Shown here in pieces: positions 8,238-31,175 of a DNA stretch of 35,072 nucleotides. Position numbers and translations under genes: made by a program. This DNA is from a virus (taxonomy: Duplodnaviria; Heunggongvirae; Uroviricota; Caudoviricetes), in IMG/VR virus record IMGVR_UViG_2698536477_000006. The stretch is one strand, 5' to 3'. Positions within the stretch are counted from its first letter, which is position 1. Each line of letters begins with the position of its first letter. A model generated the notes under the pieces. That model was not told the DNA's origin. It worked only from the letters and a program-made list of their open reading frames with translations, and did not search any database.

Positions 8238-8300
8238 CCGTTTAACTCCGTGGTTAATGGGTGCAACTATTTTCCGTTGGGTAGTGCATGAGACGCTATT

Positions 8301-8315
8301 TGACCTGGCTGGTCA
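8301..8315 (-). promoter_or_regulatory. Candidate late-promoter (P_F-like) activator dyad TGACC-N5-GGTCA upstream of FI
   Basis: Imperfect inverted repeat centred about 70 nt upstream of the FI ATG, roughly where Ogr-dependent promoters carry their upstream dyad; it does not match the remembered TGT-N12-ACA consensus exactly. Confidence 0.25.
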
Positions 8316-8324
8316 GTGGATGAA

Positions 8325-8360
8325 ACAACAGATAAAGAAAAGGCGGGCAATCAGCCCGCC
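8325..8360 (-). terminator. Intrinsic terminator downstream of the cargo ORF (stem GGCGGGC / GCCCGCC, then T-rich tract on minus strand)
   Basis: 7-bp GC stem at 8342-8348 / 8354-8360 with 5-nt loop; minus-strand downstream sequence TTTTCTTTATCTG. Confidence 0.55.
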
Positions 8361-8503
8361 TGCCTTGATTTGTACTCACTCATTTTCCGACTGACAATTT
8401 ACATAGCCCAAAAGTTATCAAATCTGACAGTCTGCTTTGAGCGAGGAGCGGACATGGTCACACGATTAGTAAACCATGGTTTGTTTTTTAAATATTTATA
8501 TAG

Positions 8504-9832
8504 CTATAAATCAATTAGTTCAAAATTATCATCAATATCTAGAGTACCAATATTGATGGAAATTGTAGAGTTTACTGTACTTCTGATAAAAGTTAATAGC
8601 CCTATGAGTTTAGGCATTAATTCCTCATCAATACCACCCCTCACTACAGCTATAATTTCTCCTTGTGTTATATCTTCCCGCTCTAAAAACTTTTCAAGCT
8701 GTTGGATAGCAGAAAATAAGCGAGTCCTCATTGAGATCAATAAACCCCGAGAAGAAAAGCTTTTAATTTCCACAGCAATAACATCACTTTCTTTTTTAAC
8801 TATTAAATCTATAGTTGGCCTACATCCCAAAGAGGGTGACAGGTCAACTTCGAATCCATTTCTTATGTAAAATTCCGCAACAGATTTTTCGGCCAAATGT
8901 TCTATTGCAATTGGATTTTGGGATTGATAACTATATATAATTTGATTGCGGTCTTCCTCATCAAGATCAATCTCCCCTAGCTTGTTTATTGCACCATTGA
9001 GGATTTCTTTTACTTGGTTTGATAAACTTCTTATTTCACAAAAATCCTGTTTAGTTAAAAATCTGTTATGTGCAACCTTATTTCTCAATTTGTAAAGTCG
9101 CTCCCATTTTCTTTCAAGATGTTGCGAGTTCTCCTCCAGGAGAGTAGAGAAATACTTCTCCCAATTTGATTTGGGTACATATTTAAGTATTTTATTTTTA
9201 TCGGACTCATCAAAATTCGTTTTGATAAGAATCCTATCAAGCTCATCCAGAGTTATATCTCTCTTCTTTTGGAACAAAACTTCTGATAGATTTATGAAAT
9301 CAAGCTTGTAAAGATCATTCAAATACACATCATCTTCTTCAAATTTTTCGATTTTTTTCACTAAGTCTGGATGAATGGCTTCCTTTGACCAAGCCATGCC
9401 TACATTAATAAGCATAAATTTACTTATTAATTTCCTCATTACGTTTTCAACATCATTTATTATAGGGTAAGACTTATGCGCATAATATCTTCCAATATCA
9501 TCCCAAAGAATATTTATTACTGTAGATTCAGGGTTTATCCTTTTGCATAATTCTTTTATTTTATCTCCAACCTCAGAAAATTCATCAATTAATTCTTCGC
9601 TTGTGTTTTCCAATGCAATTATGAAATAACGTTCTTTGTTGGATGGGATGTTATTCGTTTCAACATTGAATTTAACCGTAATTAACGGATTCGATCTTGG
9701 GGTTTTCTTATATGTTAGTTTGCGCCCCGTGATTGAGATAAGCGAGTCAATTTTTAGAAAGTCAATAAAAGCTTTTTTACTATTGCAAAAAGAATCATCA
9801 TTTGTGACAAGAACCAAAAATTCAAGTTTCAC
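8504..9832 (-). CDS. Cargo protein at the Z/fun hotspot: uncharacterised 442-aa protein with HEPN-like Rx4H motif and PD-(D/E)xK nuclease-like motif (candidate anti-phage / abortive-infection effector)
   Basis: Long ORF in a markedly AT-rich island between FI and G. RNKVAH at aa 250-255 (nt 9068-9085) fits HEPN Rx4-6H. P-T-I-D-LIV ... VIAV-E-I-K at aa 339-357 (nt 8762-8818) fits a restriction-endonuclease-like D...ExK core. Own terminator downstream. Confidence 0.6.
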   Translation of the reverse strand: MKLEFLVLVTNDDSFCNSKKAFIDFLKIDSLISITGRKLTYKKTPRSNPLITVKFNVETNNIPSNKERYFIIALENTSEELIDEFSEVGDKIKELCKRINPESTVINILWDDIGRYYAHKSYPIINDVENVMRKLISKFMLINVGMAWSKEAIHPDLVKKIEKFEEDDVYLNDLYKLDFINLSEVLFQKKRDITLDELDRILIKTNFDESDKNKILKYVPKSNWEKYFSTLLEENSQHLERKWERLYKLRNKVAHNRFLTKQDFCEIRSLSNQVKEILNGAINKLGEIDLDEEDRNQIIYSYQSQNPIAIEHLAEKSVAEFYIRNGFEVDLSPSLGCRPTIDLIVKKESDVIAVEIKSFSSRGLLISMRTRLFSAIQQLEKFLEREDITQGEIIAVVRGGIDEELMPKLIGLLTFIRSTVNSTISINIGTLDIDDNFELIDL

Positions 9833-10133
9833 TCAAAAACCTCTTTATTTTATCTTCTCAATGGAAGTTGGATGAAAAATGTTATAATATTTAATTCTTT
9901 CTTGGAGTGCATAAAAATACTATTTTCTTTTTTCTGCACAAACTATCTCAACTCATCTAAATAATCATTTTCATACGCACCTACAGACATTAGACCTCCG
10001 AATAAAATTAACGCATCAACTTTTAAATATCTATAACACATGTATAGAAATACTCAAACAAAATTATACACAATTCTCCCTTGCTCGCTCTAATTTGTTC
10101 AACAGATACTATGATATTAACTACATCTGCTCC

Positions 10134-10728: not shown

Positions 10729-12858
10729 TTATACCTGCGCCACGTTATACCATGTCCCGTTAATGTATTTCTGCACCGGTCTGTAATATACGCCACCAAT
10801 GTTATCGGCAGAGTTTGAGCCGGTATCCTGAACAATAATGCCGGTATATACACACCCTGACGGTACCTGATGTGTCCATGTCATGCCATTGTTCGCAGGT
10901 TTGTATGTGGCGGCACCACCAAGCCGGATATCCCGGACATAGCGGGAGTCAAAGTTACCGTAATCTGTGGGATTAACACGCCCCGTAATATTTATGGTTT
11001 TATTACTTTGAATGCTACCGGAGACAAAGCGCATAACATGAACGTTATTAGCATAAACATCCAGATTACCGTCGCCATTTTGTTTAAAGCCTGTGTCATT
11101 ATCACCCAAAACAATCGAGTTACCGCCAAGAGCACTGGATGTTCCGATGCCCAGTGCACCATTCAATTGACCTCCAGATAATGGCAACGCCCCAACATCA
11201 GCAGCAGTCGGTTTAATGTGCGAACTGTAAATTACATATACAGTTCCATCTGTCAGGCCTGTTGGTTTATTCGCTGTATAAGATGGTGATGTATGAATCG
11301 TTACGCTGGCGTTACTGGTATAATCCCACTGAATATTAACACCTGTGGCGTAATTACCTATTTCAACATAAACATCATAGGTATCACCGGATGTATTCAC
11401 CCATGCAAAATTAGTAAATCCAACCGATGTCCGTCGCCATAACGCACCAGTAAGACCTTTTGGATTTCCATTTCCCGCACGAAGAACAAGTTCAGATATA
11501 CCAGCCTGCATAGGGGAGTTAACATTATATCCAGCACCACCAATCAGACTTATGTAAACCACGGAACTGGCCTGTGGCATGGTTACAGTTGCCAGCCTGA
11601 ACCATCCTGTACCACCACTAAAAGACATGGTTGTTGAATTTGTTGCACCAATATTGCGCAGGAATAATCTTTTATCAGGAATATCCGCACCGTTCTGATC
11701 TTTCTGAAGACGTTTCTCAGCATTGTCATAGGCAGACTTCACCGCTTTTGGTGTTGCGGCGAGCGTTTCAGACGTGCTGTTAGTCGCACTACTGAGCTGA
11801 ACAAGGCCTTTTCGCGCCGTGGTGGCATCCTGCGCAGTATATTTCCCGTTAGCAAGGTCATACGCGACCTTTACCGCCTTTGGTGTTGCCGCAAGCGTTT
11901 CTGAATCGCTGTTGGTGGCGCTACTGAGCTGGACAAGACCTTTTCGCGCCGTGGTGGCATCCTGTGCGGTATATTTCCCGTTAGCGAGGTCATATGCTGC
12001 CTTTACCGCCTTTGGCGTTGCCGCAAGCGTTTCAGAATCGCTGTTGGTGGCGCTACTGAGCTGAGCAAGCCCTTTTCGCGCTGTGGTGGCGTCCTGTGCA
12101 GTGTATTTCCCGTTAGCAAGGTCATATGCTGTCTTTACTGCTTTTGGCGTTGCGGCGAGCGTTTCAGACGTGCTGTTAGTCGCACTACTGAGCTGAACAA
12201 GGCCTTTTCGCGCCGTGGTGGCATCCTGCGCAGTATATTTCCCGTTAGCAAGGTCATATGCGGCCTTTACCGCTTTCGGCGTTGCGGCCAGTGTTTCAGA
12301 CGTGCTGTTGGTCGCACTGCTTAACTGAGTAAAACCTTTTGCGGTCAGCGAGGCGTCCGGGTGACGTCGTGACTGTTCGTGCTCTGCAATTTTGTCATCA
12401 ACGTAATCCTGCGTCGCCATCACCGTTGTGGTGTCAATGGTCAGCGCCACTGAGGCCACACTGCTGACGATGATGACCATGCGACAGGTCTGCGAACGCC
12501 CTGAGCCTTCGGCAAGAGCTGGCTTATAACTTTCGGCCATGTTCGCCACGGCAATTAATGTTCCCGCATCATCGTACAGGCCAAGCTCACGCATCCAGAA
12601 ACCGCCCACCTCCGGCGGAATAACCAGCTCTGCGATAATATAATTACTGTTTCGTTTGTCCTGACTGATTTTGTTCAGCGCATGTCGCCAGACTTCGTGG
12701 ATAAGCCCGGTCTGTCCGGCATCCGGGACAGGCAATTTACCACCGCCATCCCCGACGGCCATCGTGGTAATGTTGACCTTCCGCCCTCCCGGTGCGGTTG
12801 CCGCTGCCAGCTTTGCTGCACCGGCAGTGGTGATAACGGTTTTGAATTTTGTGCTCAT
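10729..12858 (-). CDS. H: Tail fibre protein H (conserved P2-type N-terminus, repeat-containing shaft, divergent C-terminal receptor-binding region)
   Basis: 709 aa; N-terminus MSTKFKTVITTAGAAKLAAA... is the P2 gpH type; internal 44-aa tandem repeats; Gly/Ser/Thr-rich C-terminal half. Confidence 0.9.
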   Translation of the reverse strand: MSTKFKTVITTAGAAKLAAATAPGGRKVNITTMAVGDGGGKLPVPDAGQTGLIHEVWRHALNKISQDKRNSNYIIAELVIPPEVGGFWMRELGLYDDAGTLIAVANMAESYKPALAEGSGRSQTCRMVIIVSSVASVALTIDTTTVMATQDYVDDKIAEHEQSRRHPDASLTAKGFTQLSSATNSTSETLAATPKAVKAAYDLANGKYTAQDATTARKGLVQLSSATNSTSETLAATPKAVKTAYDLANGKYTAQDATTARKGLAQLSSATNSDSETLAATPKAVKAAYDLANGKYTAQDATTARKGLVQLSSATNSDSETLAATPKAVKVAYDLANGKYTAQDATTARKGLVQLSSATNSTSETLAATPKAVKSAYDNAEKRLQKDQNGADIPDKRLFLRNIGATNSTTMSFSGGTGWFRLATVTMPQASSVVYISLIGGAGYNVNSPMQAGISELVLRAGNGNPKGLTGALWRRTSVGFTNFAWVNTSGDTYDVYVEIGNYATGVNIQWDYTSNASVTIHTSPSYTANKPTGLTDGTVYVIYSSHIKPTAADVGALPLSGGQLNGALGIGTSSALGGNSIVLGDNDTGFKQNGDGNLDVYANNVHVMRFVSGSIQSNKTINITGRVNPTDYGNFDSRYVRDIRLGGAATYKPANNGMTWTHQVPSGCVYTGIIVQDTGSNSADNIGGVYYRPVQKYINGTWYNVAQV
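11719..12345 (-). repeat. About five tandem in-frame 132-nt (44-aa) repeats inside the tail fibre gene
   Basis: Protein motif QLSSATNS(T/D)SETLAATPKAVKxAYDLANGKYTAQDATTARKGLx recurs with 44-aa period from about aa 174 to 378; the nucleotide copies are near-identical with a few substitutions. Confidence 0.85.
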
Positions 12859-21724: not shown

Positions 21725-23497
21725 ATGACCATCACCACAGACACCACTCTTTTACACGACCCGCGTCGTCAGGCGGCGCTGCTGTACTGGCAGGGATTTT
21801 CCGTGCCGCAGATTGCTGCCATGTTGCAGATGAAACGCCCGACGGTGCAGAGCTGGAAACAGCGCGACGGCTGGGACAGCGTTGCCCCCATCAGCCGTGT
21901 CGAAATGAGTCTGGAAGCGCGGCTGACCCAGCTCATCATCAAACCGCAGAAAACCGGCGGTGACTTCAAGGAAATTGACCTGCTCGGACGCCAGATTGAA
22001 CGACTGGCACGGGTAAACCGCTACAGCCAGACCGGCAACGAGGCAGACCTTAATCCGAACGTCGCTAACCGCAACAAAGGCGGGCGGCGCAAACCGAAAA
22101 AGAATTTTTTCAGTGACGAGGCCATCGAAAAGCTGGAGCAGATTTTCTTTGAGCAGTCTTTCGAATATCAGTTGCACTGGTATCGCGCCGGGCTTGAGCA
22201 CCGCATCCGCGATATCCTGAAATCCCGCCAGATTGGCGCAACGTTTTATTTTTCCCGCGAGGCGCTGCTGCGCGCCCTGAAAACCGGCCATAACCAGATT
22301 TTTCTGTCGGCCAGTAAAACGCAGGCGTATGTGTTCCGCGAATACATCATCGCCTTTGCCCGTCTGGTTGACGTTGACCTGACCGGTGACCCGATTGTCC
22401 TGGGCAATAACGGCGCAAAACTGATTTTTCTCGGCACCAACTCCAACACCGCGCAGAGCCATAACGGCGACCTGTACGTCGACGAGATTTTCTGGATCCC
22501 GAATTTTCAGGTACTGCGTAAGGTGGCATCAGGTATGGCCTCACAGAGCCACCTGCGCTCGACCTATTTCTCCACCCCGTCCACGCTGGCGCACGACGCC
22601 TACCCGTTCTGGTCGGGTGAACTGTTTAACCGGGGACGCGCCAGCGCCGCCGAACGCGTGGAAATCGACGTCAGTCATAACGCCCTTGCCGGAGGTCTTC
22701 TCTGTGCGGACGGCCAGTGGCGGCAGATTGTCACCATTGAGGACGCCCTGAAAGGCGGCTGCACGCTGTTCGACATTGAGCAGCTCAAACGTGAAAACAG
22801 CGCCGACGATTTTAAAAACCTGTTCATGTGTGAATTTGTTGACGACAAGGCGTCGGTGTTCCCGTTCGAGGAGCTGCAACGCTGCATGGTCGACACGCTG
22901 GAAGAATGGGAAGACTATGCGCCGTTTGCCGCCAATCCGTTCGGCTCCCGCCCGGTCTGGATTGGTTACGACCCGTCACACCGTGGCGACAGTGCCGGAT
23001 GCGTGGTGCTGGCACCGCCGGTGGTGGCCGGTGGCAAATTCAGAATACTTGAGCGTCACCAGTGGAAAGGCATGGACTTTGCCACACAGGCGGAATCCAT
23101 CCGCAAACTCACCGAAAAATACAACGTCGAATACATCGGAATTGATGCCACCGGCCTCGGTGTCGGCGTGTTCCAGCTCGTGCGCTCGTTCTATCCCGCC
23201 GCGCGCGATATCCGCTACACGCCGGAAATGAAAACCGCAATGGTGCTCAAGGCAAAAGACGTCATCCGCCGTGGCTGTCTGGAATATGACGTCAGCGCCA
23301 CCGACATCACCAGCTCGTTTATGGCTATCCGCAAGACCATGACCAGCAGCGGACGCAGCGCCACTTATGAGGCCAGCCGCAGCGAGGAAGCCAGCCACGC
23401 CGACCTCGCCTGGGCGACCATGCACGCCCTGTTAAATGAGCCACTCACCGCCGGTATCAGCACACCGCTGACATCCACCATTCTGGAGTTTTACTGA
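21725..23497 (+). CDS. P: Terminase large (ATPase) subunit P
   Basis: 590-aa product from ATG at 21725 (MTITTDTTLL...); divergent from O across the P_O/P_P intergenic region. Confidence 0.9.
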   Translation: MTITTDTTLLHDPRRQAALLYWQGFSVPQIAAMLQMKRPTVQSWKQRDGWDSVAPISRVEMSLEARLTQLIIKPQKTGGDFKEIDLLGRQIERLARVNRYSQTGNEADLNPNVANRNKGGRRKPKKNFFSDEAIEKLEQIFFEQSFEYQLHWYRAGLEHRIRDILKSRQIGATFYFSREALLRALKTGHNQIFLSASKTQAYVFREYIIAFARLVDVDLTGDPIVLGNNGAKLIFLGTNSNTAQSHNGDLYVDEIFWIPNFQVLRKVASGMASQSHLRSTYFSTPSTLAHDAYPFWSGELFNRGRASAAERVEIDVSHNALAGGLLCADGQWRQIVTIEDALKGGCTLFDIEQLKRENSADDFKNLFMCEFVDDKASVFPFEELQRCMVDTLEEWEDYAPFAANPFGSRPVWIGYDPSHRGDSAGCVVLAPPVVAGGKFRILERHQWKGMDFATQAESIRKLTEKYNVEYIGIDATGLGVGVFQLVRSFYPAARDIRYTPEMKTAMVLKAKDVIRRGCLEYDVSATDITSSFMAIRKTMTSSGRSATYEASRSEEASHADLAWATMHALLNEPLTAGISTPLTSTILEFY

Positions 23498-24531
23498 TGA
23501 GCAAGAAAAAAGGGAAAACACTGCAACCTGCGGCAAAAAAAATGACCGCCAGTGCCCCGAAAATGGAGGCATTCACCTTTGGCGAACCGGTGCCGGTACT
23601 CGACCGCCGTGACATTCTGGATTACGTCGAGTGCATCAGTAACGGCAGATGGTATGAGCCACCAATCAGCTTTACCGGTCTGGCAAAAAGCCTGCGTGCT
23701 GCCGTGCATCACAGCTCCCCGATTTACGTCAAACGCAATATTCTGGCCTCGACATTTATCCCGCATCCGTGGCTGTCCCAGCAGGATTTCAGCCGCTTTG
23801 TGCTGGATTTTCTGGTGTTCGGTAATGCGTTTCTGGAAAAGCGTTACAGCACTACCGGTAAAGTCATCAGACTGGAAACCTCACCGGCAAAATATACCCG
23901 CCGTGGTGTGGAAGAGGATGTTTACTGGTGGGTGCCGTCCTTCAACGAGCCGACAGCCTTCGCGCCCGGTTCCGTGTTTCACCTGCTGGAGCCGGATATT
24001 AATCAGGAGCTGTACGGCCTGCCGGAATATCTCAGCGCCCTTAACTCTGCCTGGCTGAATGAGTCGGCCACGCTGTTCCGCCGCAAGTATTACGAAAACG
24101 GCGCACATGCCGGATACATCATGTACGTTACCGATGCCGTGCAGGATCGCAACGATATCGAAATGCTTCGCGAAAACATGGTGAAGTCGAAAGGCCGCAA
24201 CAACTTTAAAAACCTGTTTCTCTATGCCCCACAGGGAAAAGCCGACGGCATTAAAATTATCCCGCTCAGTGAAGTGGCAACGAAGGACGATTTTTTTAAT
24301 ATCAAAAAAGCCAGCGCCGCAGACCTGCTGGACGCGCACCGCATCCCCTTTCAGTTGATGGGCGGCAAGCCGGAGAACGTCGGGTCGCTGGGTGATATTG
24401 AGAAAGTGGCAAAGGTCTTTGTCCGCAATGAGCTTATCCCGTTACAGGACAGGATCCGCGAGATAAACGGCTGGCTCGGTCAGGAGGTCATCCGCTTTAA
24501 AAACTACTCACTGGACACTGACAACGGCTGA
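23497..24531 (+). CDS. Q: Portal protein Q
   Basis: 344 aa; P2 gpQ length; last gene before cos. Confidence 0.9.
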   Translation: MSKKKGKTLQPAAKKMTASAPKMEAFTFGEPVPVLDRRDILDYVECISNGRWYEPPISFTGLAKSLRAAVHHSSPIYVKRNILASTFIPHPWLSQQDFSRFVLDFLVFGNAFLEKRYSTTGKVIRLETSPAKYTRRGVEEDVYWWVPSFNEPTAFAPGSVFHLLEPDINQELYGLPEYLSALNSAWLNESATLFRRKYYENGAHAGYIMYVTDAVQDRNDIEMLRENMVKSKGRNNFKNLFLYAPQGKADGIKIIPLSEVATKDDFFNIKKASAADLLDAHRIPFQLMGGKPENVGSLGDIEKVAKVFVRNELIPLQDRIREINGWLGQEVIRFKNYSLDTDNG

Positions 24532-24536
24532 ACATC

Positions 24537-24558
24537 GCCGCCTGCGGGCGGCTTTTTT
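24537..24558 (+). terminator. Intrinsic terminator after Q (GCCGCC-TGCG-GGCGGC then TTTTTT)
   Basis: 6-bp GC stem, 4-nt loop, 6-T run immediately after the Q stop. Confidence 0.7.
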
Positions 24559-24700
24559 ACACCCCGTCATCACACCCTCACACGCTCACCACCGCACAAA
24601 ACACCCCGCAGACACACCAACGCCCCGGCGCACAATCCAAACGCCGTCACGACGCGCTCAGACGCTGAAAAAATAAAATCAGCACCACCGCCAGCGCGCA

Positions 24701-24719
24701 GTGCTTTCCCCGCCTCGCC
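24701..24719. other. cos: cos cohesive-end sequence (19 nt; reverse complement of GGCGAGGCGGGGAAAGCAC)
   Basis: GTGCTTTCCCCGCCTCGCC read directly; matches the P2 19-nt cohesive end; located between Q and the early region as in P2. Confidence 0.8.
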
Positions 24720-24848
24720 CGCCCGCTTCATGTGGCGATTTTAATGCGGTTGCATTTTTATCGAAAGTCTCGTCTCACAAATCCCTCCCTTCACTAAATA
24801 GACTCATTATCCACATGCAATCTAATTCAAAAAAATGCATGTATAGTA

Positions 24849-26819
24849 TTAAAGGTCATCAATTAAACCTAAAGGCAAACCGTCCTCACCAACCGAGCTA
24901 TAATGAGCGATAATATTCGAAAGTTCACCAGTAGAAAACGAATTAGGCAAATCATTATCAACTAATATAATCTGGCACGGAACATTTTTTCTTTCTGCTT
25001 TTTGAACTGTATTCAATAGTTGTTCATAAATATTTTGATACTTCATCGGATCTGACATTCCCTCAAGGTCATCCTCGAATGCAAGAGTTTCTTTTGAATA
25101 TTTTTCCTTGGTCTGTTTCCCTAAATATTTGCCAACCGTATCAAATATCAAAAGTAAAGGATGGTTAACATTATGATCTATTGCATAATCAAGAATAGAC
25201 AAAAGATACCCAATAGAAGAAATAGTTCTCAAACCTCCGGATGTTATTTTAAAATATTCTTTTTCTCTTATAACAGGAATGTAATAGCTTTCAGAGATTT
25301 TTATCCCCGTTCTGTTTTTGATATTAATACCCTTCAAATACTGACTAAATCTATCACCCAAACCTTGTAAAATGCCCTCCATGCTAGGTGCGTTTTTCTT
25401 TAACGCCTCCAAGCGTTCAGTTAATGCTTCAATATCTTTTCTCAGTACCTGATACTTTTCAAGCAGTTCCTCTTGCTGGTTTCTAACCTTCAAATCTTTT
25501 ACTAACTGCTCCCTAACCTTCTCATTTTTTGAGATCTCTTTAATATAAAAATCTCTCTGAGTCAAGAATGGTGTAATCATTGACTGGCTTTCTTCGTCAA
25601 TCAATTCTCTCAACTCGTCAAGTCGTTCATCTAATTCCTTTTTATAACCTGATTCTTTTTTTAATTTAAATGACATTTCTGAGATCATGTCATTAATATT
25701 TCGTCTACGTCGACTAAGTGAATTCAACTCTTCATTAAGATCTTTTTCTGATGAGATTTCAAATGGAAAATCAGAATCATCTATTTTAATGTGGCTATCA
25801 CAGACTGGACAGGAAAATACTTCCTTATCCAATACACCAATGCGAGAATTTGCTGTTTTAATCGCTTTGAGTTTTTCAATATCATTATCATAGTCATTTT
25901 TTAACCGCGAATATTTATCAATCTTATCCTCAAGCGCAGTAATATTTAATATGCACTCTTTGTATTTAAGCGAAATAAAATTGTGAGCATCTTTCAATTC
26001 TGTATACTGTATGGAATCCGCTTTCATATTTTTATCGAGAGCAGACAAACCTGCAACAAGTTCTTCTAAAACAAGATCTATCCTATTAATCTCATCATCA
26101 ATTGATTCAATCGTTTCATAGTCTGTATCGCGAAGAAATTCAGATATTATCTGATACTTCCTATTTAATTCCGTTACTAAACTACTTTTTGCAGATATTT
26201 CACCTTGGAGTCTGGCGATGCTTTCATCCAACACATTGAACATGTATTTAAAAACTTCTTTCGTAAATGCGTAGCGGGACCAATCACCCAATCGCAAGAA
26301 AGATTTACTACCAATATCATCCTGACTTACATAAACAAATTTATATATATTTCTAAAACTTAACCTGCGCATCTGTGAATGAGCTTTAGAAGGAGACACC
26401 TTAATTTCAATCTTTGGAAAATTAAGACTATCAAGTAAAAACTCCGAAAAAACACCATCAACATTTGATAATGGGCTATAATTAGGAGCGTATTTTTTCG
26501 GAAAATGTTTATGTAAATCATCAAACTTACAACGATAAACTTCTATTGCTTTTTTATGATCATAGATATCTCTTACGATTGTGAATACAGTATCATTGAT
26601 CACTACTTCAAGAGCAGCATAGTTTACTGATGTTTTTATTTCATCTGCTAAATCTATAGAGCTAGCACCTAAAAGATAATTAATAAACTCCAGAATGCTT
26701 GACTTACCTGTGTCAGAGTCTCCGTAGATAACATTGAGACCTTTATAAAAAGTAGTGACGTAGTTTTTACGAACGCCAACAAGAATCAAACTATTGATAT
26801 TGAGATATGATTTCATCAT
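24849..26819 (-). CDS. SMC/Rad50-like ABC ATPase (Lamassu LmuB-like / ABC-3C ATPase component): N-terminal Walker A, long central coiled-coil with CxxC hook, C-terminal signature-like and Walker-B-like motifs
   Basis: 656 aa; Walker A GDSDTGKS at aa 33-40; central region rich in E/K/L heptad-like sequence; CPVC at aa 337-340 (nt 25800-25811); ITSGG at aa 525-529; hydrophobic strand LLLIFD at aa 555-560; start overlaps stop of the upstream gene. Confidence 0.75.
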   Translation of the reverse strand: MMKSYLNINSLILVGVRKNYVTTFYKGLNVIYGDSDTGKSSILEFINYLLGASSIDLADEIKTSVNYAALEVVINDTVFTIVRDIYDHKKAIEVYRCKFDDLHKHFPKKYAPNYSPLSNVDGVFSEFLLDSLNFPKIEIKVSPSKAHSQMRRLSFRNIYKFVYVSQDDIGSKSFLRLGDWSRYAFTKEVFKYMFNVLDESIARLQGEISAKSSLVTELNRKYQIISEFLRDTDYETIESIDDEINRIDLVLEELVAGLSALDKNMKADSIQYTELKDAHNFISLKYKECILNITALEDKIDKYSRLKNDYDNDIEKLKAIKTANSRIGVLDKEVFSCPVCDSHIKIDDSDFPFEISSEKDLNEELNSLSRRRRNINDMISEMSFKLKKESGYKKELDERLDELRELIDEESQSMITPFLTQRDFYIKEISKNEKVREQLVKDLKVRNQQEELLEKYQVLRKDIEALTERLEALKKNAPSMEGILQGLGDRFSQYLKGINIKNRTGIKISESYYIPVIREKEYFKITSGGLRTISSIGYLLSILDYAIDHNVNHPLLLIFDTVGKYLGKQTKEKYSKETLAFEDDLEGMSDPMKYQNIYEQLLNTVQKAERKNVPCQIILVDNDLPNSFSTGELSNIIAHYSSVGEDGLPLGLIDDL

Positions 26820-27328
26820 TTCTCCTTGAAGACTTGATTTATAACAGAGTTTAACTTAGAGGTAGGCAATGCTTGTAGCGGTAACAATGCTTCGGATAGT
26901 CGTTTTATTTCTTTAAAATATCCATCAGTCAATGAGCTAGCAAATTCCTTACCTTTTTCAGATAAAAATAATTTAACACTCTCATTATTTTTTTTCTCAG
27001 CTGAGAGCAATCCCCGCAATGACATAATTTTTATAAGATATTTCACTTTGGAATTGTCGAATAAGATATCTACATTTGTTGAAAAACTCTTTATTGTATA
27101 AGTTAACTGGGACTCGACACAAGCAGGCTTTTTCCCCGAAACTGTAAGAGCATAATCAATTTTTGATGGGTTTTTTATCAGATACATAAAAATTTGTATT
27201 TTATTAATATCTAATGATAACACTCCTTTTTTGCTATGAGATAATATAGATATAGCAATGGCAAGCATAGCAAAATTCAAGCTATACTCTTCATCAAGAG
27301 GAATATACGGCAAGTTATTTTTCTTCAT
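26816..27328 (-). CDS. Small middle component (LmuC-like / ABC-3C MC) of the cassette
   Basis: 170-aa ORF wedged between effector and ATPase with overlapping start and stop codons on both sides; AT-rich like its neighbours. Confidence 0.6.
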   Translation of the reverse strand: MKKNNLPYIPLDEEYSLNFAMLAIAISILSHSKKGVLSLDINKIQIFMYLIKNPSKIDYALTVSGKKPACVESQLTYTIKSFSTNVDILFDNSKVKYLIKIMSLRGLLSAEKKNNESVKLFLSEKGKEFASSLTDGYFKEIKRLSEALLPLQALPTSKLNSVINQVFKEK

Positions 27329-28538
27329 GATTACCTCGCCGTAATTGCTCCAAAGTTTCTACGCTGGTTTCAGATGACCAGACAATATCCCTGTCATTTT
27401 TGTTAGCCAGTTGATGCAACATTCCTTTCTTATGTATCGTTTCTAAACTTTTTATAAGAGAATCTAACGACGACTTATCCTCTTGGGCTATTCGTCTATG
27501 AACAGCAGCAATAAATTTATCTGGGGAAATTGAATTCGCGATATATTGCTCATACTCTTCCTGGTAAATCTCCCTTATTTTAGAATACAAATGACCAAGT
27601 AGTTTCCTATCGTAATCACTCGTAAAAATATTTCTCGCAAGCTCAGCATTATAATAATATTCCTTTGCATGCATAGCGATATCCTGATGTATATCTGCGA
27701 CAATCATTTTTAAGACGAAATACTCATTATCATATTGTTTCTCATCAGAAAAACGCTCAACACATATCTTCTTGGGTGCTTCTAAATTTATCTGCTGAAT
27801 AAATTGCTTTACCGCAACAAACACTGTAGACGAGCTGTTTTCGGGCTTGCAAATTGAGCTATGCCCTTCATTAACTGCAATTGAGTTATTTCGTTCACTA
27901 TCCATCGGTAATGCGCTTTTTTTATCAACTATAGTGTCATGAGAACCATAAACATATCTAGTGATAGGAAGTTTTTTGCTACAATTTATCCAGCGCCTAT
28001 TCAACGTATCGGTCGCTTCACTTAACAATCCAAGATCTACTAACTGAGCATTTGAAGATACCATTGAAGTTATATTCGCCAATTTAGCACCAAAGTGAGG
28101 GACTGCTAACGAAATGAATCCAATTATATTAGATTGTTCCTCATGCTCAACTTTTTTTAGAATTAGATTTTTTGATATTAACCCCCCCATACTATGGGCG
28201 ATTATTATAATTCGAGAGTAATCACTTAGCGTTACCCTAATCTCAGTATACAATAACTCAGCTATTTCATCAGTTGGTAAATTTCTCTCTAACTTATTTT
28301 TCTTAGAGAAAATACGAGCCCATAATCCTGACGTTTTAGCATACGTTTGTGTAAATTTGGTGAAATAATTGAAACATGCAATATCAAATACATTGCCAAT
28401 GTCTTCATCTTCTGCTAATAGTTTTGGAAATGAAGTTTCTTTATTAAAGTTCCATGTTTCCAAACCACCATTTAATCCATGTACAAATAGTATCAGGCTA
28501 TCTTTTTTCTCGTGGCTTATCCATTCAACCATGCTCAT
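27315..28538 (-). CDS. Effector component: N-terminal alpha/beta-hydrolase (lipase/esterase-like) domain plus C-terminal helical domain (LmuA-like with hydrolase effector)
   Basis: 407 aa; oxyanion HG in LFVHGLNGG (aa 17-25); nucleophile elbow AHSMGG with Ser116 (nt 28191-28193); candidate Asp201 (GSHDTIVD) and His226 (NEGHSS) give a Ser-Asp-His triad in canonical order; first gene of the three-gene operon. Confidence 0.7.
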   Translation of the reverse strand: MSMVEWISHEKKDSLILFVHGLNGGLETWNFNKETSFPKLLAEDEDIGNVFDIACFNYFTKFTQTYAKTSGLWARIFSKKNKLERNLPTDEIAELLYTEIRVTLSDYSRIIIIAHSMGGLISKNLILKKVEHEEQSNIIGFISLAVPHFGAKLANITSMVSSNAQLVDLGLLSEATDTLNRRWINCSKKLPITRYVYGSHDTIVDKKSALPMDSERNNSIAVNEGHSSICKPENSSSTVFVAVKQFIQQINLEAPKKICVERFSDEKQYDNEYFVLKMIVADIHQDIAMHAKEYYYNAELARNIFTSDYDRKLLGHLYSKIREIYQEEYEQYIANSISPDKFIAAVHRRIAQEDKSSLDSLIKSLETIHKKGMLHQLANKNDRDIVWSSETSVETLEQLRRGNHEEK

Positions 28539-28586
28539 ATGCTTTTCTGCCGTGTATAAAAATTAAACTATAACAAACAATTCCTC

Positions 28587-28603
28587 AACAATAACATATT
28601 GTT
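28587..28603. promoter_or_regulatory. Inverted repeat AACAATA-aca-TATTGTT about 50-65 nt upstream of the cassette start codon (candidate operator/promoter element)
   Basis: 7-bp perfect arms read directly, in the 89-nt gap between the A stop and the effector start. Confidence 0.3.
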
Positions 28604-28627
28604 ACCCCGTTTGACCGTTTTTTTCAA

Positions 28628-30910
28628 CTACCACTCACGCTGTCTGTCAAAAAAGTCGATATCGTTATCAAATTTAAAACGCTTATGCCCAAAATCCAAA
28701 ACAGCTCCGCGAGCGAGAGCTTCAAGCTCCCAATAACTAGCCTGAATGTCACTTTGTGCAAGAAGAACCTTAATTTTCGGGATAGTCTTTCTCTCCTGCC
28801 TTGTCAACCGGGCGGATGGGGCAGGAAAGTAGCTTCGACCATTGAAAGGGGTAAAGCTCTGCTGTGAACGATTACTGCATTTCAGTTCATTACTCAATAA
28901 GTCTCTAAGTACCTTCATAATGCCTGGCTCGGTCCAACTTAGAATCCCTTCATCTATTAAATTTAACACCGCTGCAGCATGCTCAGTCGGTGTGGGAGCC
29001 GGTAACGAAGTATCACCACCGGTGAGTTTTCCACAGTTATTGACAGGACTCCGAGGCGCGGCGATGCCGCTTTTTAAAGTCAAAGGCTCAACGACCGGAA
29101 CTTTCGGCACAATGCGCCAGTCCGTCGTTCTGGTGATATGAATATGACGCGCGCCGAGATGCGGCGCGTAAATGCCGACCACTCTCTCGACTTCTTCCTC
29201 GTACTCGTTAACGTCATCCGACGGGCTACGGGCGACCCTGACAGTCTGACAATCGCGCGGGACATTTGCCCCACCCTGCGCGCTGATATACAACGCAAAA
29301 TCACCACTGTCTGCGGCAGCGCGAGCAGCCTCGACGCGTTCGTCAAACTCATCAGCAATACTGACGCCGCGAGGCAATTTGCGTAGTTCACGGTAAGCCC
29401 CCATTGTCGGCAGTCCAACCGTTTTAAATTGCGGAATGCGCCACGTTGACGCCCATGCGGTAACAGCCGCGGCAGTATCTTTAAGCGGCTTACCGGTATC
29501 GTTATCGAGCTGACCATCCAGTGCATAGCCGTCGATGTTTTTTGAAATGTATTTCGCGATATATCCCGCAGCACCGCCCCGGTTAAGGTGTTTTGCCTGA
29601 AAACGGTTTCGCGCAGCTCCTCTTTCGTCTCCATCCTCTTTGAGCGCGTAGCGACGCATGATTTCGATAATCTGGTTACGCTGGCGTGGATTACAAAAAA
29701 GCATCATATGCCAGTGCGGCGTTCCGTCGTGGTGTGGCTCGACGACACGCAAACCGTAGACCTGTAAATCATTATCCTTGAATGCCGTGCGCATCAGGCT
29801 CCAGATGCGGCAGAGATAACGCTGCGCATCCTTTGGATTAAATGCCTCATCGTTCCAGCCGTGATTAAGCTGAACGGTTTTACTTTCGCCTTTTCTGACC
29901 TGACGTGTCGGGTGATACTTTGACGGCGCGGTCAGCGTGATAAACATCCCCACATCACCCTCTGCGGCGGCGTAACGCTCAATACCGGCAATGGTGTTCA
30001 TCAGCTCCATCCGGCGAATTTCAGGATTAGAAATACTGCCCATCACCTTACTGATAAGGTCGATGCGCTCGCCGGTTTCCCTGTTTTCAAGGTCACACGA
30101 TTTAAGAAATTCCAGATTTGCCTGGCGGCGCGCACGCACATCACGAATGGCGTGTTTACTGGCATAAGGAGAACGGTCTTTATTGACCTCCCCGACAGCT
30201 ATCAGTAACGCTTCATGCCAGCGCATACGCTGGCCTTTAAGCTGATGAGTCCACCACTCATCGTTAAACAGACGGGCAATGGCAGAATATGCCTGCCTCG
30301 TGGTCATCTGCCCTTTACGGTATTTTTTCCAGTAGAGAGGGGAAATATTGAAAGCACGTGCAGCGCCAGCAACATGACCATAGAGGTGAGCCTGCGCCTC
30401 ATCCGTAAACAGCGATTCTTTTTCGCCATGCGCATCCACCCAGGCATCACTGAGTTCCCCATACATCATGAAAAGCTGCGATGAGATACGGGCAGCAAAC
30501 TTTTTCAGCTCCTTGTCATTCATTCCCGGCAGGCGCGCATAGTGGTCACGCTCTGCCAGAAACAGTAACGACGCGTCGGTGTTCATTTCATGGCGCTGAT
30601 TCACACGCTCAATGCGCGGCCATAAACGACGCTGAAAAGTGGATGTGAGGAAATAAAACCCGTGCACCGGGCTTTTATTGCGCCGGATGTGGTCATAGCG
30701 TGAAGTAAACAGCGAGCGCAAAAAGTAAGGCAGGCGGTTAATCGTGGATAAAACACCTTGCACCTGACGCATCTCGTCACGTGTAAGGGGTCTTTCGCGC
30801 CCGACGGCCTCGCGTGGCGCGTTCCATGCATAAGCACCGGTAAACGCCTTACCGGTGCCTGCAGCAAATGCTGACGGAGGGACAAAACGCCCGGAGGCTT
30901 TAACGGCCAT
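28628..30910 (-). CDS. A: Replication initiation protein A (rolling-circle nickase)
   Basis: 761-aa product from internal ATG at 30910 (MAVKASGRFVPPSAF...); P2 gpA length. Confidence 0.9.
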   Translation of the reverse strand: MAVKASGRFVPPSAFAAGTGKAFTGAYAWNAPREAVGRERPLTRDEMRQVQGVLSTINRLPYFLRSLFTSRYDHIRRNKSPVHGFYFLTSTFQRRLWPRIERVNQRHEMNTDASLLFLAERDHYARLPGMNDKELKKFAARISSQLFMMYGELSDAWVDAHGEKESLFTDEAQAHLYGHVAGAARAFNISPLYWKKYRKGQMTTRQAYSAIARLFNDEWWTHQLKGQRMRWHEALLIAVGEVNKDRSPYASKHAIRDVRARRQANLEFLKSCDLENRETGERIDLISKVMGSISNPEIRRMELMNTIAGIERYAAAEGDVGMFITLTAPSKYHPTRQVRKGESKTVQLNHGWNDEAFNPKDAQRYLCRIWSLMRTAFKDNDLQVYGLRVVEPHHDGTPHWHMMLFCNPRQRNQIIEIMRRYALKEDGDERGAARNRFQAKHLNRGGAAGYIAKYISKNIDGYALDGQLDNDTGKPLKDTAAAVTAWASTWRIPQFKTVGLPTMGAYRELRKLPRGVSIADEFDERVEAARAAADSGDFALYISAQGGANVPRDCQTVRVARSPSDDVNEYEEEVERVVGIYAPHLGARHIHITRTTDWRIVPKVPVVEPLTLKSGIAAPRSPVNNCGKLTGGDTSLPAPTPTEHAAAVLNLIDEGILSWTEPGIMKVLRDLLSNELKCSNRSQQSFTPFNGRSYFPAPSARLTRQERKTIPKIKVLLAQSDIQASYWELEALARGAVLDFGHKRFKFDNDIDFFDRQREW

Positions 30911-31175
30911 ATGAGCCAAAAGCCTCTGAGCAACGCTTGCTGAGTTGCTCAACCTGCGCGTTTAAATCAGCAAAAGACTTTGCGCTTCCGGTCAGAATAT
31001 CGTGATGCATCAGGCCGGAAACGAGCTGGCTTAATTTCGGGTAATAACCAACCACCGCCAGCCATTCCTGACCGGCGTTTTTACCGCTTTCCGCTCTCTT
31101 TTTCTCGTGGAGAATAAACTGAAAGCTGTCACTGGTAACGACATAACGTTCGCCAATTTCAATACGAATACTCAT
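30900..31175 (-). CDS. Early-operon hypothetical protein (P2 orf83 position)
   Basis: 91-aa ORF directly upstream of A in the same orientation. Confidence 0.6.
   Translation of the reverse strand: MSIRIEIGERYVVTSDSFQFILHEKKRAESGKNAGQEWLAVVGYYPKLSQLVSGLMHHDILTGSAKSFADLNAQVEQLSKRCSEAFGSYGR

Follow-up and report, generated by a model that had tools for sequence, protein, structure and literature searches.

The three-gene cassette at positions 24849-28538 of a 35,072-nucleotide (nt) stretch of viral DNA, the IMG/VR record IMGVR_UViG_2698536477_000006 (hereafter the window), is very probably an intact type II ('short', zinc-hook) Lamassu/ABC-3C defence system with the gene order lmuA-lmuC-lmuB and a lipase-like effector, carried as cargo by a P2-like prophage of Escherichia coli O157:H7. 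The window as a whole corresponds to such a prophage, for which the near-identical, RefSeq-annotated region of E. coli O157:H7 TW14359 served as a guide (99.7% identity at this locus). The cassette consists of three open reading frames (ORFs), listed here in the order of transcription:

27315..28538, minus strand: lmuA, 407 amino acids (aa), the effector, with an N-terminal alpha/beta-hydrolase domain and an ABC-3C CTD8 domain
26816..27328, minus strand: lmuC, 170 aa, the middle component (ABC-3C MC4), with a predicted winged-helix core
24849..26819, minus strand: lmuB, 656 aa, a short SMC/Rad50-like ATPase

Between lmuA and lmuC 14 nt are shared, and between lmuC and lmuB 4 nt (ATGA); overlaps of this sort usually indicate translational coupling. 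The cassette has a GC (guanine plus cytosine) content of 0.332 compared to 0.539 for the rest of the prophage. A sequence-only reading of the window had described three AT-rich, coupled genes between cos and gene A in the slot of the P2 genes tin and old, a 407-aa alpha/beta-hydrolase with a Ser116-Asp201-His226 triad, and a 656-aa SMC/Rad50-like ATPase with a Walker A motif and a CPVC motif, and had compared their architecture to that of Lamassu and ABC-3C systems. These elements were all recovered in the analysis described below, and the profile searches that had been suggested there (PADLOC, Pfam) matched all three proteins to Lamassu/ABC-3C models.

The assignment to the family is carried by these curated models. 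PADLOC recognised the 407-aa protein as LmuA (PDLC03851, 9.1e-109, aa 3-406), the 170-aa protein as LmuC (PDLC03869, 1.5e-52, full length), and the 656-aa protein as LmuB (PDLC03862, 1.5e-235, aa 2-656), and matches of this strength, from 1e-52 to 1e-235, exclude chance as the source of the ORFs. In Pfam, which holds the ABC-3C proteins as a set of CTD1-12 and MC1-8 families, aa 265-389 of LmuA matched ABC-3C CTD8 (1.7e-35) and LmuC matched ABC-3C MC4 (5e-27), both above the gathering thresholds. ABC-3C corresponds to the Lamassu superfamily, and the alpha/beta-hydrolase is among the known effector domains of LmuA (review, PMC10586767); the cassette does not differ from ABC-3C systems, the two terms being names for one family, and RefSeq designates the proteins 'ABC-three component system protein', 'middle component 4', and 'AAA family ATPase' or 'SMC family protein'. 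The sequence features by which a Lamassu system is recognised are all present, i.e. an SMC/Rad50-like LmuB whose N- and C-terminal half-heads flank a coiled coil, a small LmuC encoded between lmuA and lmuB, an LmuA composed of an enzymatic domain and a C-terminal docking/oligomerisation domain, a CxxC hook at the predicted apex of the coiled coil (a trait of some clades, including the lipase clade H), and a three-gene operon that moves between genomes as a unit. Besides these matches, a marginal one to JetC of the Wadjet system (JetABCD) was found (6e-4, no stretch passing by itself) and genes for JetA, JetB, and JetD are absent, so that Wadjet was rejected; weak Pfam matches to SpoIISA_toxin, DASH_Dad3, and RICTOR_M were dismissed as coiled-coil or low-score noise.

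LmuA can be divided into two domains, the first of which contains the residues of the putative catalytic triad:

aa ~1-255, nt 27774-28538, minus strand: DUF676/PGAP1-type alpha/beta-hydrolase domain
aa 265-389, nt 27372-27746, minus strand: helical CTD8 domain
28191-28193, 27936-27938, and 27861-27863, minus strand: catalytic codons of Ser116, Asp201, and His226, respectively

The designation of the N-terminal domain as a DUF676/PGAP1-type alpha/beta-hydrolase is supported both by profile searches and by a structural model. In Pfam, it matched DUF676 (2.4e-9, 37.5 bits with a cut-off of 20.3) and PGAP1 (2.9e-7, 30.9 bits with a cut-off of 24.3). Ser116 (in AHSMGG), Asp201, and His226 are invariant across 36 LmuA homologues with identities down to 42%, the order Ser-Asp-His is canonical, and the nucleophile elbow A-H-S116-M-G fits the pattern G/A-x-S-x-G; we take the pentapeptide A-H-S-M-G to be the variant elbow of Bacillus lipases, which is a lead rather than a test. 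The AlphaFold2 (AF2) model of the hydrolase core reaches predicted local distance difference test (pLDDT) values of 80-95 and shows alternating strands and helices. When this model was compared to the PDB with Foldseek, 739 matches with an expect value (E) <=0.001 were obtained, the top ones being lipases, esterases, monoacylglycerol lipases, carboxylesterases, and thioesterases at about 1e-7. The family profile of LmuA reached the putative lipase 7x2p (4e-6) in the PDB and in addition the esterase BlEst2, phospholipase A2 group XV, and the GPI inositol-deacylase PGAP1, and these profile matches provide family-level hints of lipid-ester hydrolysis.

LmuB displays the sequence motifs of an ABC ATPase together with those of a zinc hook:

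26703-26705, minus strand: codon of K39 in the Walker A motif G33-K39 (GDSDTGKS)
25800-25811, minus strand: hook motif C337-P-V-C340
25239-25241, minus strand: codon of S527 in the signature motif S527-G-G
25137-25142, minus strand: Walker B motif D560-T561, without Glu

Among 28 LmuB homologues, G33...K39, Q166 of the Q-loop, S527-G-G, D560, and C337-P-x-C340 are invariant. The same holds for the Thr which occupies the position of the usual catalytic Glu of ABC ATPases in the Walker B motif (LLIFDT). The LmuB of the Salmonella enterica system (SalEnt) has a 'deviant Walker B', a weak or very slow ATPase activity, and a functional zinc hook, and the D-T of the LmuB studied here matches this deviant motif. 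With a LmuB profile, 9hqu_A, a 660-aa 'DUF3732 domain-containing protein', was found in the PDB (4.1e-10, positions 4-570), with its CPMC aligned to CPxC, and Rad50 at 4.8e-5. In NCBIfam, aa 198-520 gave sub-threshold coiled-coil matches to SMC, Rad50, and an archaeal SMC-related protein. As to the start of lmuB, two adjacent ATG codons (ATGATGA, 26814-26819) overlap the lmuC stop codon; in RefSeq, the 656-aa form annotated in O157:H7 starts at the first of them and the 655-aa form of the E. coli B lineage at the second, and most of the aligned LmuB homologues start at the second Met (MKSY...).

LmuC is predicted to adopt a winged-helix fold; with its profile, only non-significant matches to MarR and ScoC (E 0.13-0.5) were obtained in the PDB.

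The position of the cassette identifies it as cargo of a P2 defence hotspot. In TW14359, RefSeq annotates portal, terminase, capsid, and scaffold genes on one flank and the replication endonuclease (gene A), cox, repressor, and integrase genes on the other. The boundaries in the window are the following:

23497..24531, plus strand: gene of the P2 portal protein (Q), an ORF annotated by RefSeq as 'phage portal protein' and convergent with lmuB
24535-24552: GC-rich hairpin, a terminator-like site 3' of the portal gene, from a program scan
24701..24719, minus strand: P2-type cos, 19-nt cohesive-end sequence, an exact match and the downstream boundary of the cargo slot
28539..28627, minus strand: spacer of 89 base pairs from the gene A stop to the lmuA start, with one weak sigma-70-like site
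28628..30952, minus strand: P2 gene A (replication endonuclease), an ORF annotated by RefSeq as 'replication endonuclease' at the TW14359 locus

The P2 cos sequence GGCGAGGCGGGGAAAGCAC was matched exactly at 24701-24719 and in none of 100 shuffles. Gene A lies on the same strand as lmuA, 89 base pairs upstream of it, and the cassette (24849..28538) thus occupies the interval between portal gene Q/cos and gene A, which has been defined as the P2 defence hotspot and which in P2 itself harbours old and tin (Rousset et al. 2022, PMC9122126). Members of the Lamassu family have been seen in those prophage hotspots (Millman et al. 2022). The P2 genes old and tin resemble the cassette in their slot between gene A and cos and in their role, i.e. 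the exclusion of other phages by a lysogen, but differ from it in that their proteins and mechanisms are unrelated.

Whether the subtype had already been described was left as a question by the sequence-only reading, and the answer is yes, as RefSeq, Rousset et al. (2022), and Li et al. (2025) all cover it. The system has been catalogued before, and so has its occurrence in precisely this position: for this hotspot, Table S5A of Rousset et al. (2022) lists WP_000063136, the LmuA accession of TW14359, from contigs of O157:H7 as 'DUF676/PGAP1 + hypothetical + hypothetical'. The value of the cassette as a discovery is therefore small, since PADLOC and Pfam recognise it, RefSeq annotates it, the hotspot survey lists it, and the Lamassu structure papers of 2025 discuss its effector class. 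Its practical value is that of a natural, intact E. coli copy with which one can ask what a lipase-type effector hydrolyses and how release and oligomerisation activate a non-nuclease effector.

Several characterised systems are close enough to the cassette for comparison. A system with the same type of effector is Ec-Lipase, a short Lamassu of clade H from E. coli, which also has a lipase-type LmuA with a Ser/Asp/His triad, a LmuC, and a short LmuB with a CxxC hook. Ec-Lipase protects against lambda-vir, mutants in Walker A and in the catalytic His are inactive, and toxicity upon over-expression is lost only in the His mutant (Haudiquet et al. 2025, PMC12663957). The mutated residues are K42 of LmuB and H215 of LmuA, compared to K39 and H226 here, where position 42 is an Ile and position 215 a Glu. 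DdmABC of Vibrio cholerae and SalEnt LmuACB share with the cassette the operon order A-C-B, the short LmuB, the middle component LmuC, and a LmuA made up of an effector and a C-terminal oligomerisation domain. They differ in having a Cap4-nuclease effector and solved structures, whereas here an alpha/beta-hydrolase is combined with CTD8, and they resemble the cassette so little in sequence that a solved homologue was reached with the LmuB profile alone. SalEnt LmuB shares the deviant Walker B motif with the LmuB described here, and DdmC of V. cholerae, unlike the latter, is devoid of a zinc hook. For the class of LmuA proteins to which the one described here belongs, the combination of lipase and CTD8, Li et al. 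(2025) discuss the oligomeric state: for lipase-type LmuA proteins with CTD8 or CTD9, dimers and cyclic oligomers of higher order are predicted in place of the cyclic tetramer of the nuclease, and how such oligomers activate a non-nuclease effector is stated there not to be understood.

By analogy to V. cholerae DdmABC, S. enterica LmuACB, and E. coli Ec-Lipase, a five-step mechanism may be proposed for the cassette. Cryo-electron microscopy of DdmABC and of S. enterica LmuACB revealed complexes of the composition LmuA1-LmuB2-LmuC1, in which one LmuA has its oligomerisation domain sequestered by LmuC and a folded LmuB dimer. These complexes bind DNA ends in vitro, in vivo they show enrichment at the origin of phage replication, and LmuA, once released, assembles into an active oligomer that causes cell death. 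In a resting cell of the lysogen, a single LmuA would accordingly be kept inactive, its CTD8 being sequestered close to the zinc hook by LmuC and the folded LmuB dimer. The complex would sense an invading phage or plasmid by its DNA ends or replication intermediates, with the LmuB heads and the winged-helix LmuC contacting the DNA, and ATP-dependent engagement of the heads would lead to the release of LmuA. The freed LmuA would self-associate via CTD8 and its Ser116-Asp201-His226 hydrolase would be switched on, so that the cell would be killed, most likely by hydrolysis of ester bonds in membrane lipids. The expected outcome is an abortive infection brought about by the activated hydrolase, which would protect the population of lysogens and, along with it, the prophage. 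The assignment of membrane lipid as the substrate, although the most likely one, is the weakest link of this chain. That CTD8 makes LmuA assemble into dimers or bigger rings, unlike the tetramer of the nuclease, and thereby turns on a lipid-ester hydrolase which destroys the membrane, is offered as a tentative possibility; such a route of killing would be new to the family.

P2 replicates by a rolling-circle mechanism which is initiated by a nick introduced by gpA, and cos ends are produced in its life cycle. A putative sensor of DNA ends and replication intermediates carried by a P2-like prophage raises the matter of self-tolerance during the prophage's own induction.

A number of points weigh against reading the cassette as an intact lipase-type Lamassu system with this mode of action. 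The support for a role in defence comes from experiments on relatives, none of which was performed with this exact sequence; Ec-Lipase in particular is not the protein of this cassette, as the mutant numbering given above does not fit. When single sequences were searched against the PDB with phmmer, a Lamassu structure was found for none of the three proteins, the searches yielding zero matches for LmuB and LmuC and only marginal esterase matches for LmuA. In view of these empty or marginal results profiles were needed, and the LmuB profile was the only one of the searches to reach a solved Lamassu-type homologue. The CTD8 domain of LmuA was modelled by AF2 with low confidence (pLDDT 35-65), a range that allows no inference on oligomerisation. 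A lipid substrate has been demonstrated for no lipase-type Lamassu. In the region scanned for promoters, no convincing promoter belonging to the cassette itself was detected: 13 promoter-like sites were found compared to 17.7 expected from shuffles, and the candidate in the spacer, a weak sigma-70-like site (TTGAAA-18-AACAAT, 28627..28598), is no better than chance. The same scan gave five terminator-like sites compared to 2.3 expected. Finally, the closest relative ever cloned, pFR106, is absent from the P2-hotspot systems reported to be protective by Rousset et al. (2022, PMC9122126).

The last of these points can probably be traced to the cloned copy. Plasmid pFR106 ('Hydrolase + SMC') carries the cassette of E. 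coli REL606 (Rousset et al. 2022, PMC9122126), which is located in the same hotspot, shows 97.3% DNA identity to the cassette of the window, and has the P2 cos sequence within the cloned insert as well. In REL606 (NC_012967.1), however, a 2-nt insertion (TG) after codon 50 of lmuC splits the gene into ORFs of 50 and 121 aa, which RefSeq annotates as two fragments, whereas the 170-aa lmuC is intact in the E. coli B record NZ_CP115178.1 and in the window (26816-27328). In agreement with this, the table of Rousset et al. (2022, PMC9122126) gives a 50-aa second protein for pFR106 and lists REL606 with two genes only. In the Lamassu systems tested, defence was abolished whenever lmuC, the ATPase, or the effector was missing (Millman et al. 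2022), and since deletion of lmuC has this effect, the broken gene probably explains why protection by pFR106 was not reported. Because of the frameshift, the pFR106 result is uninformative with respect to the subtype: the sole published cloning of the cassette was made with a broken lmuC, and the unreported phenotype is not evidence that the subtype is inactive. The frameshift in REL606 lmuC is a small new point of this analysis.

Among 5426 complete E. coli genomes, 96 contain the cassette at full length on the chromosome, 84 of them with at least 99% identity over the full length (the records listed being mostly O157:H7) and 12 with 95-99% identity (those listed being B-lineage strains and a strain labelled 'C'), and about 2150 genomes have only the P2 flanks in common with the query. 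The cassette was found in none of the deposited phage genomes, of which P2-like phages matched only the first 156 nt of the query (24600-24755, beside cos). Related modules that keep the A-C-B order and these domains are spread over the Gammaproteobacteria, for example on the chromosome of Methylomonas and in a conjugative-element context in Pseudomonas aeruginosa. Homologues of the lipase-type lmuA on a contig of Klebsiella pneumoniae and in P. aeruginosa adjoin genes of type IV secretion and conjugation, such as those for TraG/TrwB-like coupling proteins and an ArdC-like antirestriction protein, and this neighbourhood suggests that the module also travels on conjugative elements.

These contexts in P. 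aeruginosa and Klebsiella fit a second reading, according to which the main role of the cassette is the competition between mobile elements, i.e. elimination of plasmids and exclusion of temperate phages or satellites, rather than defence against lytic phages. It gains from the fact that DdmABC of V. cholerae restricts plasmids as well as phages and that systems of the P2 hotspot can act on other P2-like phages (Rousset et al. 2022, PMC9122126). Competition of this kind is compatible with anti-phage defence, as the family does both, and the E. coli lipase-type system protects against lambda-vir; as the main role of the cassette, we consider it rather unlikely.

A further alternative retains the assignment to Lamassu but regards the hydrolase as an esterase, thioesterase, or deacylase acting on a substrate other than phospholipids, such as acyl-proteins, a lipoprotein, lipid-linked cell-wall precursors, or a small molecule. 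The fold is permissive in this respect, since the structural matches of LmuA span monoacylglycerol lipases, carboxylesterases, type II thioesterases, and haloalkane dehalogenases, all at about 1e-7, and the Pfam matches include families of palmitoyl-protein thioesterases and PGAP1 deacylases. Moreover, pLDDT drops below 50 in the AF2 model at aa 60-86 and 150-171 of LmuA, where many alpha/beta-hydrolases probably have their lid or cap elements, and the binding pocket is not readable. On the other hand, the best profile matches are enzymes acting on lipid esters (the putative lipase, phospholipase A2 group XV, and the GPI inositol-deacylase), the effector class is named 'lipase' in the field, and killing via the membrane is the simplest route to abortive infection. 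A non-phospholipid substrate thus appears unlikely to us, and hydrolysis of membrane lipids is kept as the preferred activity of LmuA.

It is very unlikely that the cassette is silent or decaying cargo which has no current function in its host. The want of a promoter above chance would be expected in that case, as would the lmuC frameshift in the REL606 lineage and the few O157 records in which the matched stretch has an additional 'hypothetical protein' or an ATPase of another name, but all three ORFs are intact, with all catalytic and structural motifs and the translational coupling kept, and the cassette is conserved in the 84 complete genomes with at least 99% identity over its full length.

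The proposal that the 656-aa protein is a housekeeping DNA-repair ATPase of the SbcC/Rad50 type, suggested by several database records which call it 'exonuclease SbcC', by its real though distant homology to Rad50, and by the proposed descent of Lamassu from SbcCD, is refuted by the gene context, with LmuC and a serine hydrolase as neighbours in place of an SbcD/Mre11 nuclease gene, and by NCBIfam scores for Rad50, SMC, and RecN of 13-26 bits, far below the cut-offs of 400-1000, and AT-rich prophage cargo present in only 96 of 5426 genomes is a setting that also speaks against it, leaving it a negligible chance. The relationship to Rad50-Mre11/SbcCD, the proposed evolutionary ancestor, is rather one of shared architecture (ABC ATPase heads, an antiparallel coiled coil, and a CxxC hook), from which LmuB departs by a much shorter coiled coil, a Walker B motif without Glu, the absence of a Mre11/SbcD partner, and the coupling to a toxic effector.

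Two other loci of the window deserve mention. A second AT-rich island with a GC content of 0.32 extends from about 8300 to 10000 and contains a single ORF of 442 aa (8504-9832, minus strand) between the tail sheath and tail-fibre genes, a position which is presumably the other variable locus of P2, Z/fun. Weak Pfam matches were obtained for the encoded protein with a Swt1-like HEPN domain (5.6e-4, R-x4-H motif, RNKVAH) and with an AHJR-like restriction-endonuclease fold (8.5e-3), as well as a weak PADLOC match to the candidate PDC-M34B (4.7e-7), and on the basis of these similarities it may be a single-protein defence nuclease. The tail fibre ORF (10729-12858, minus strand) contains five tandem repeats of 44 aa at aa ~170-390 (…DATTARKGLxQLSSATNSxSETLAATPKAVKxAYDLANGKYTAQ…), in which the motif LSSATNS occurs at aa 179, 223, 267, 311, and 355.

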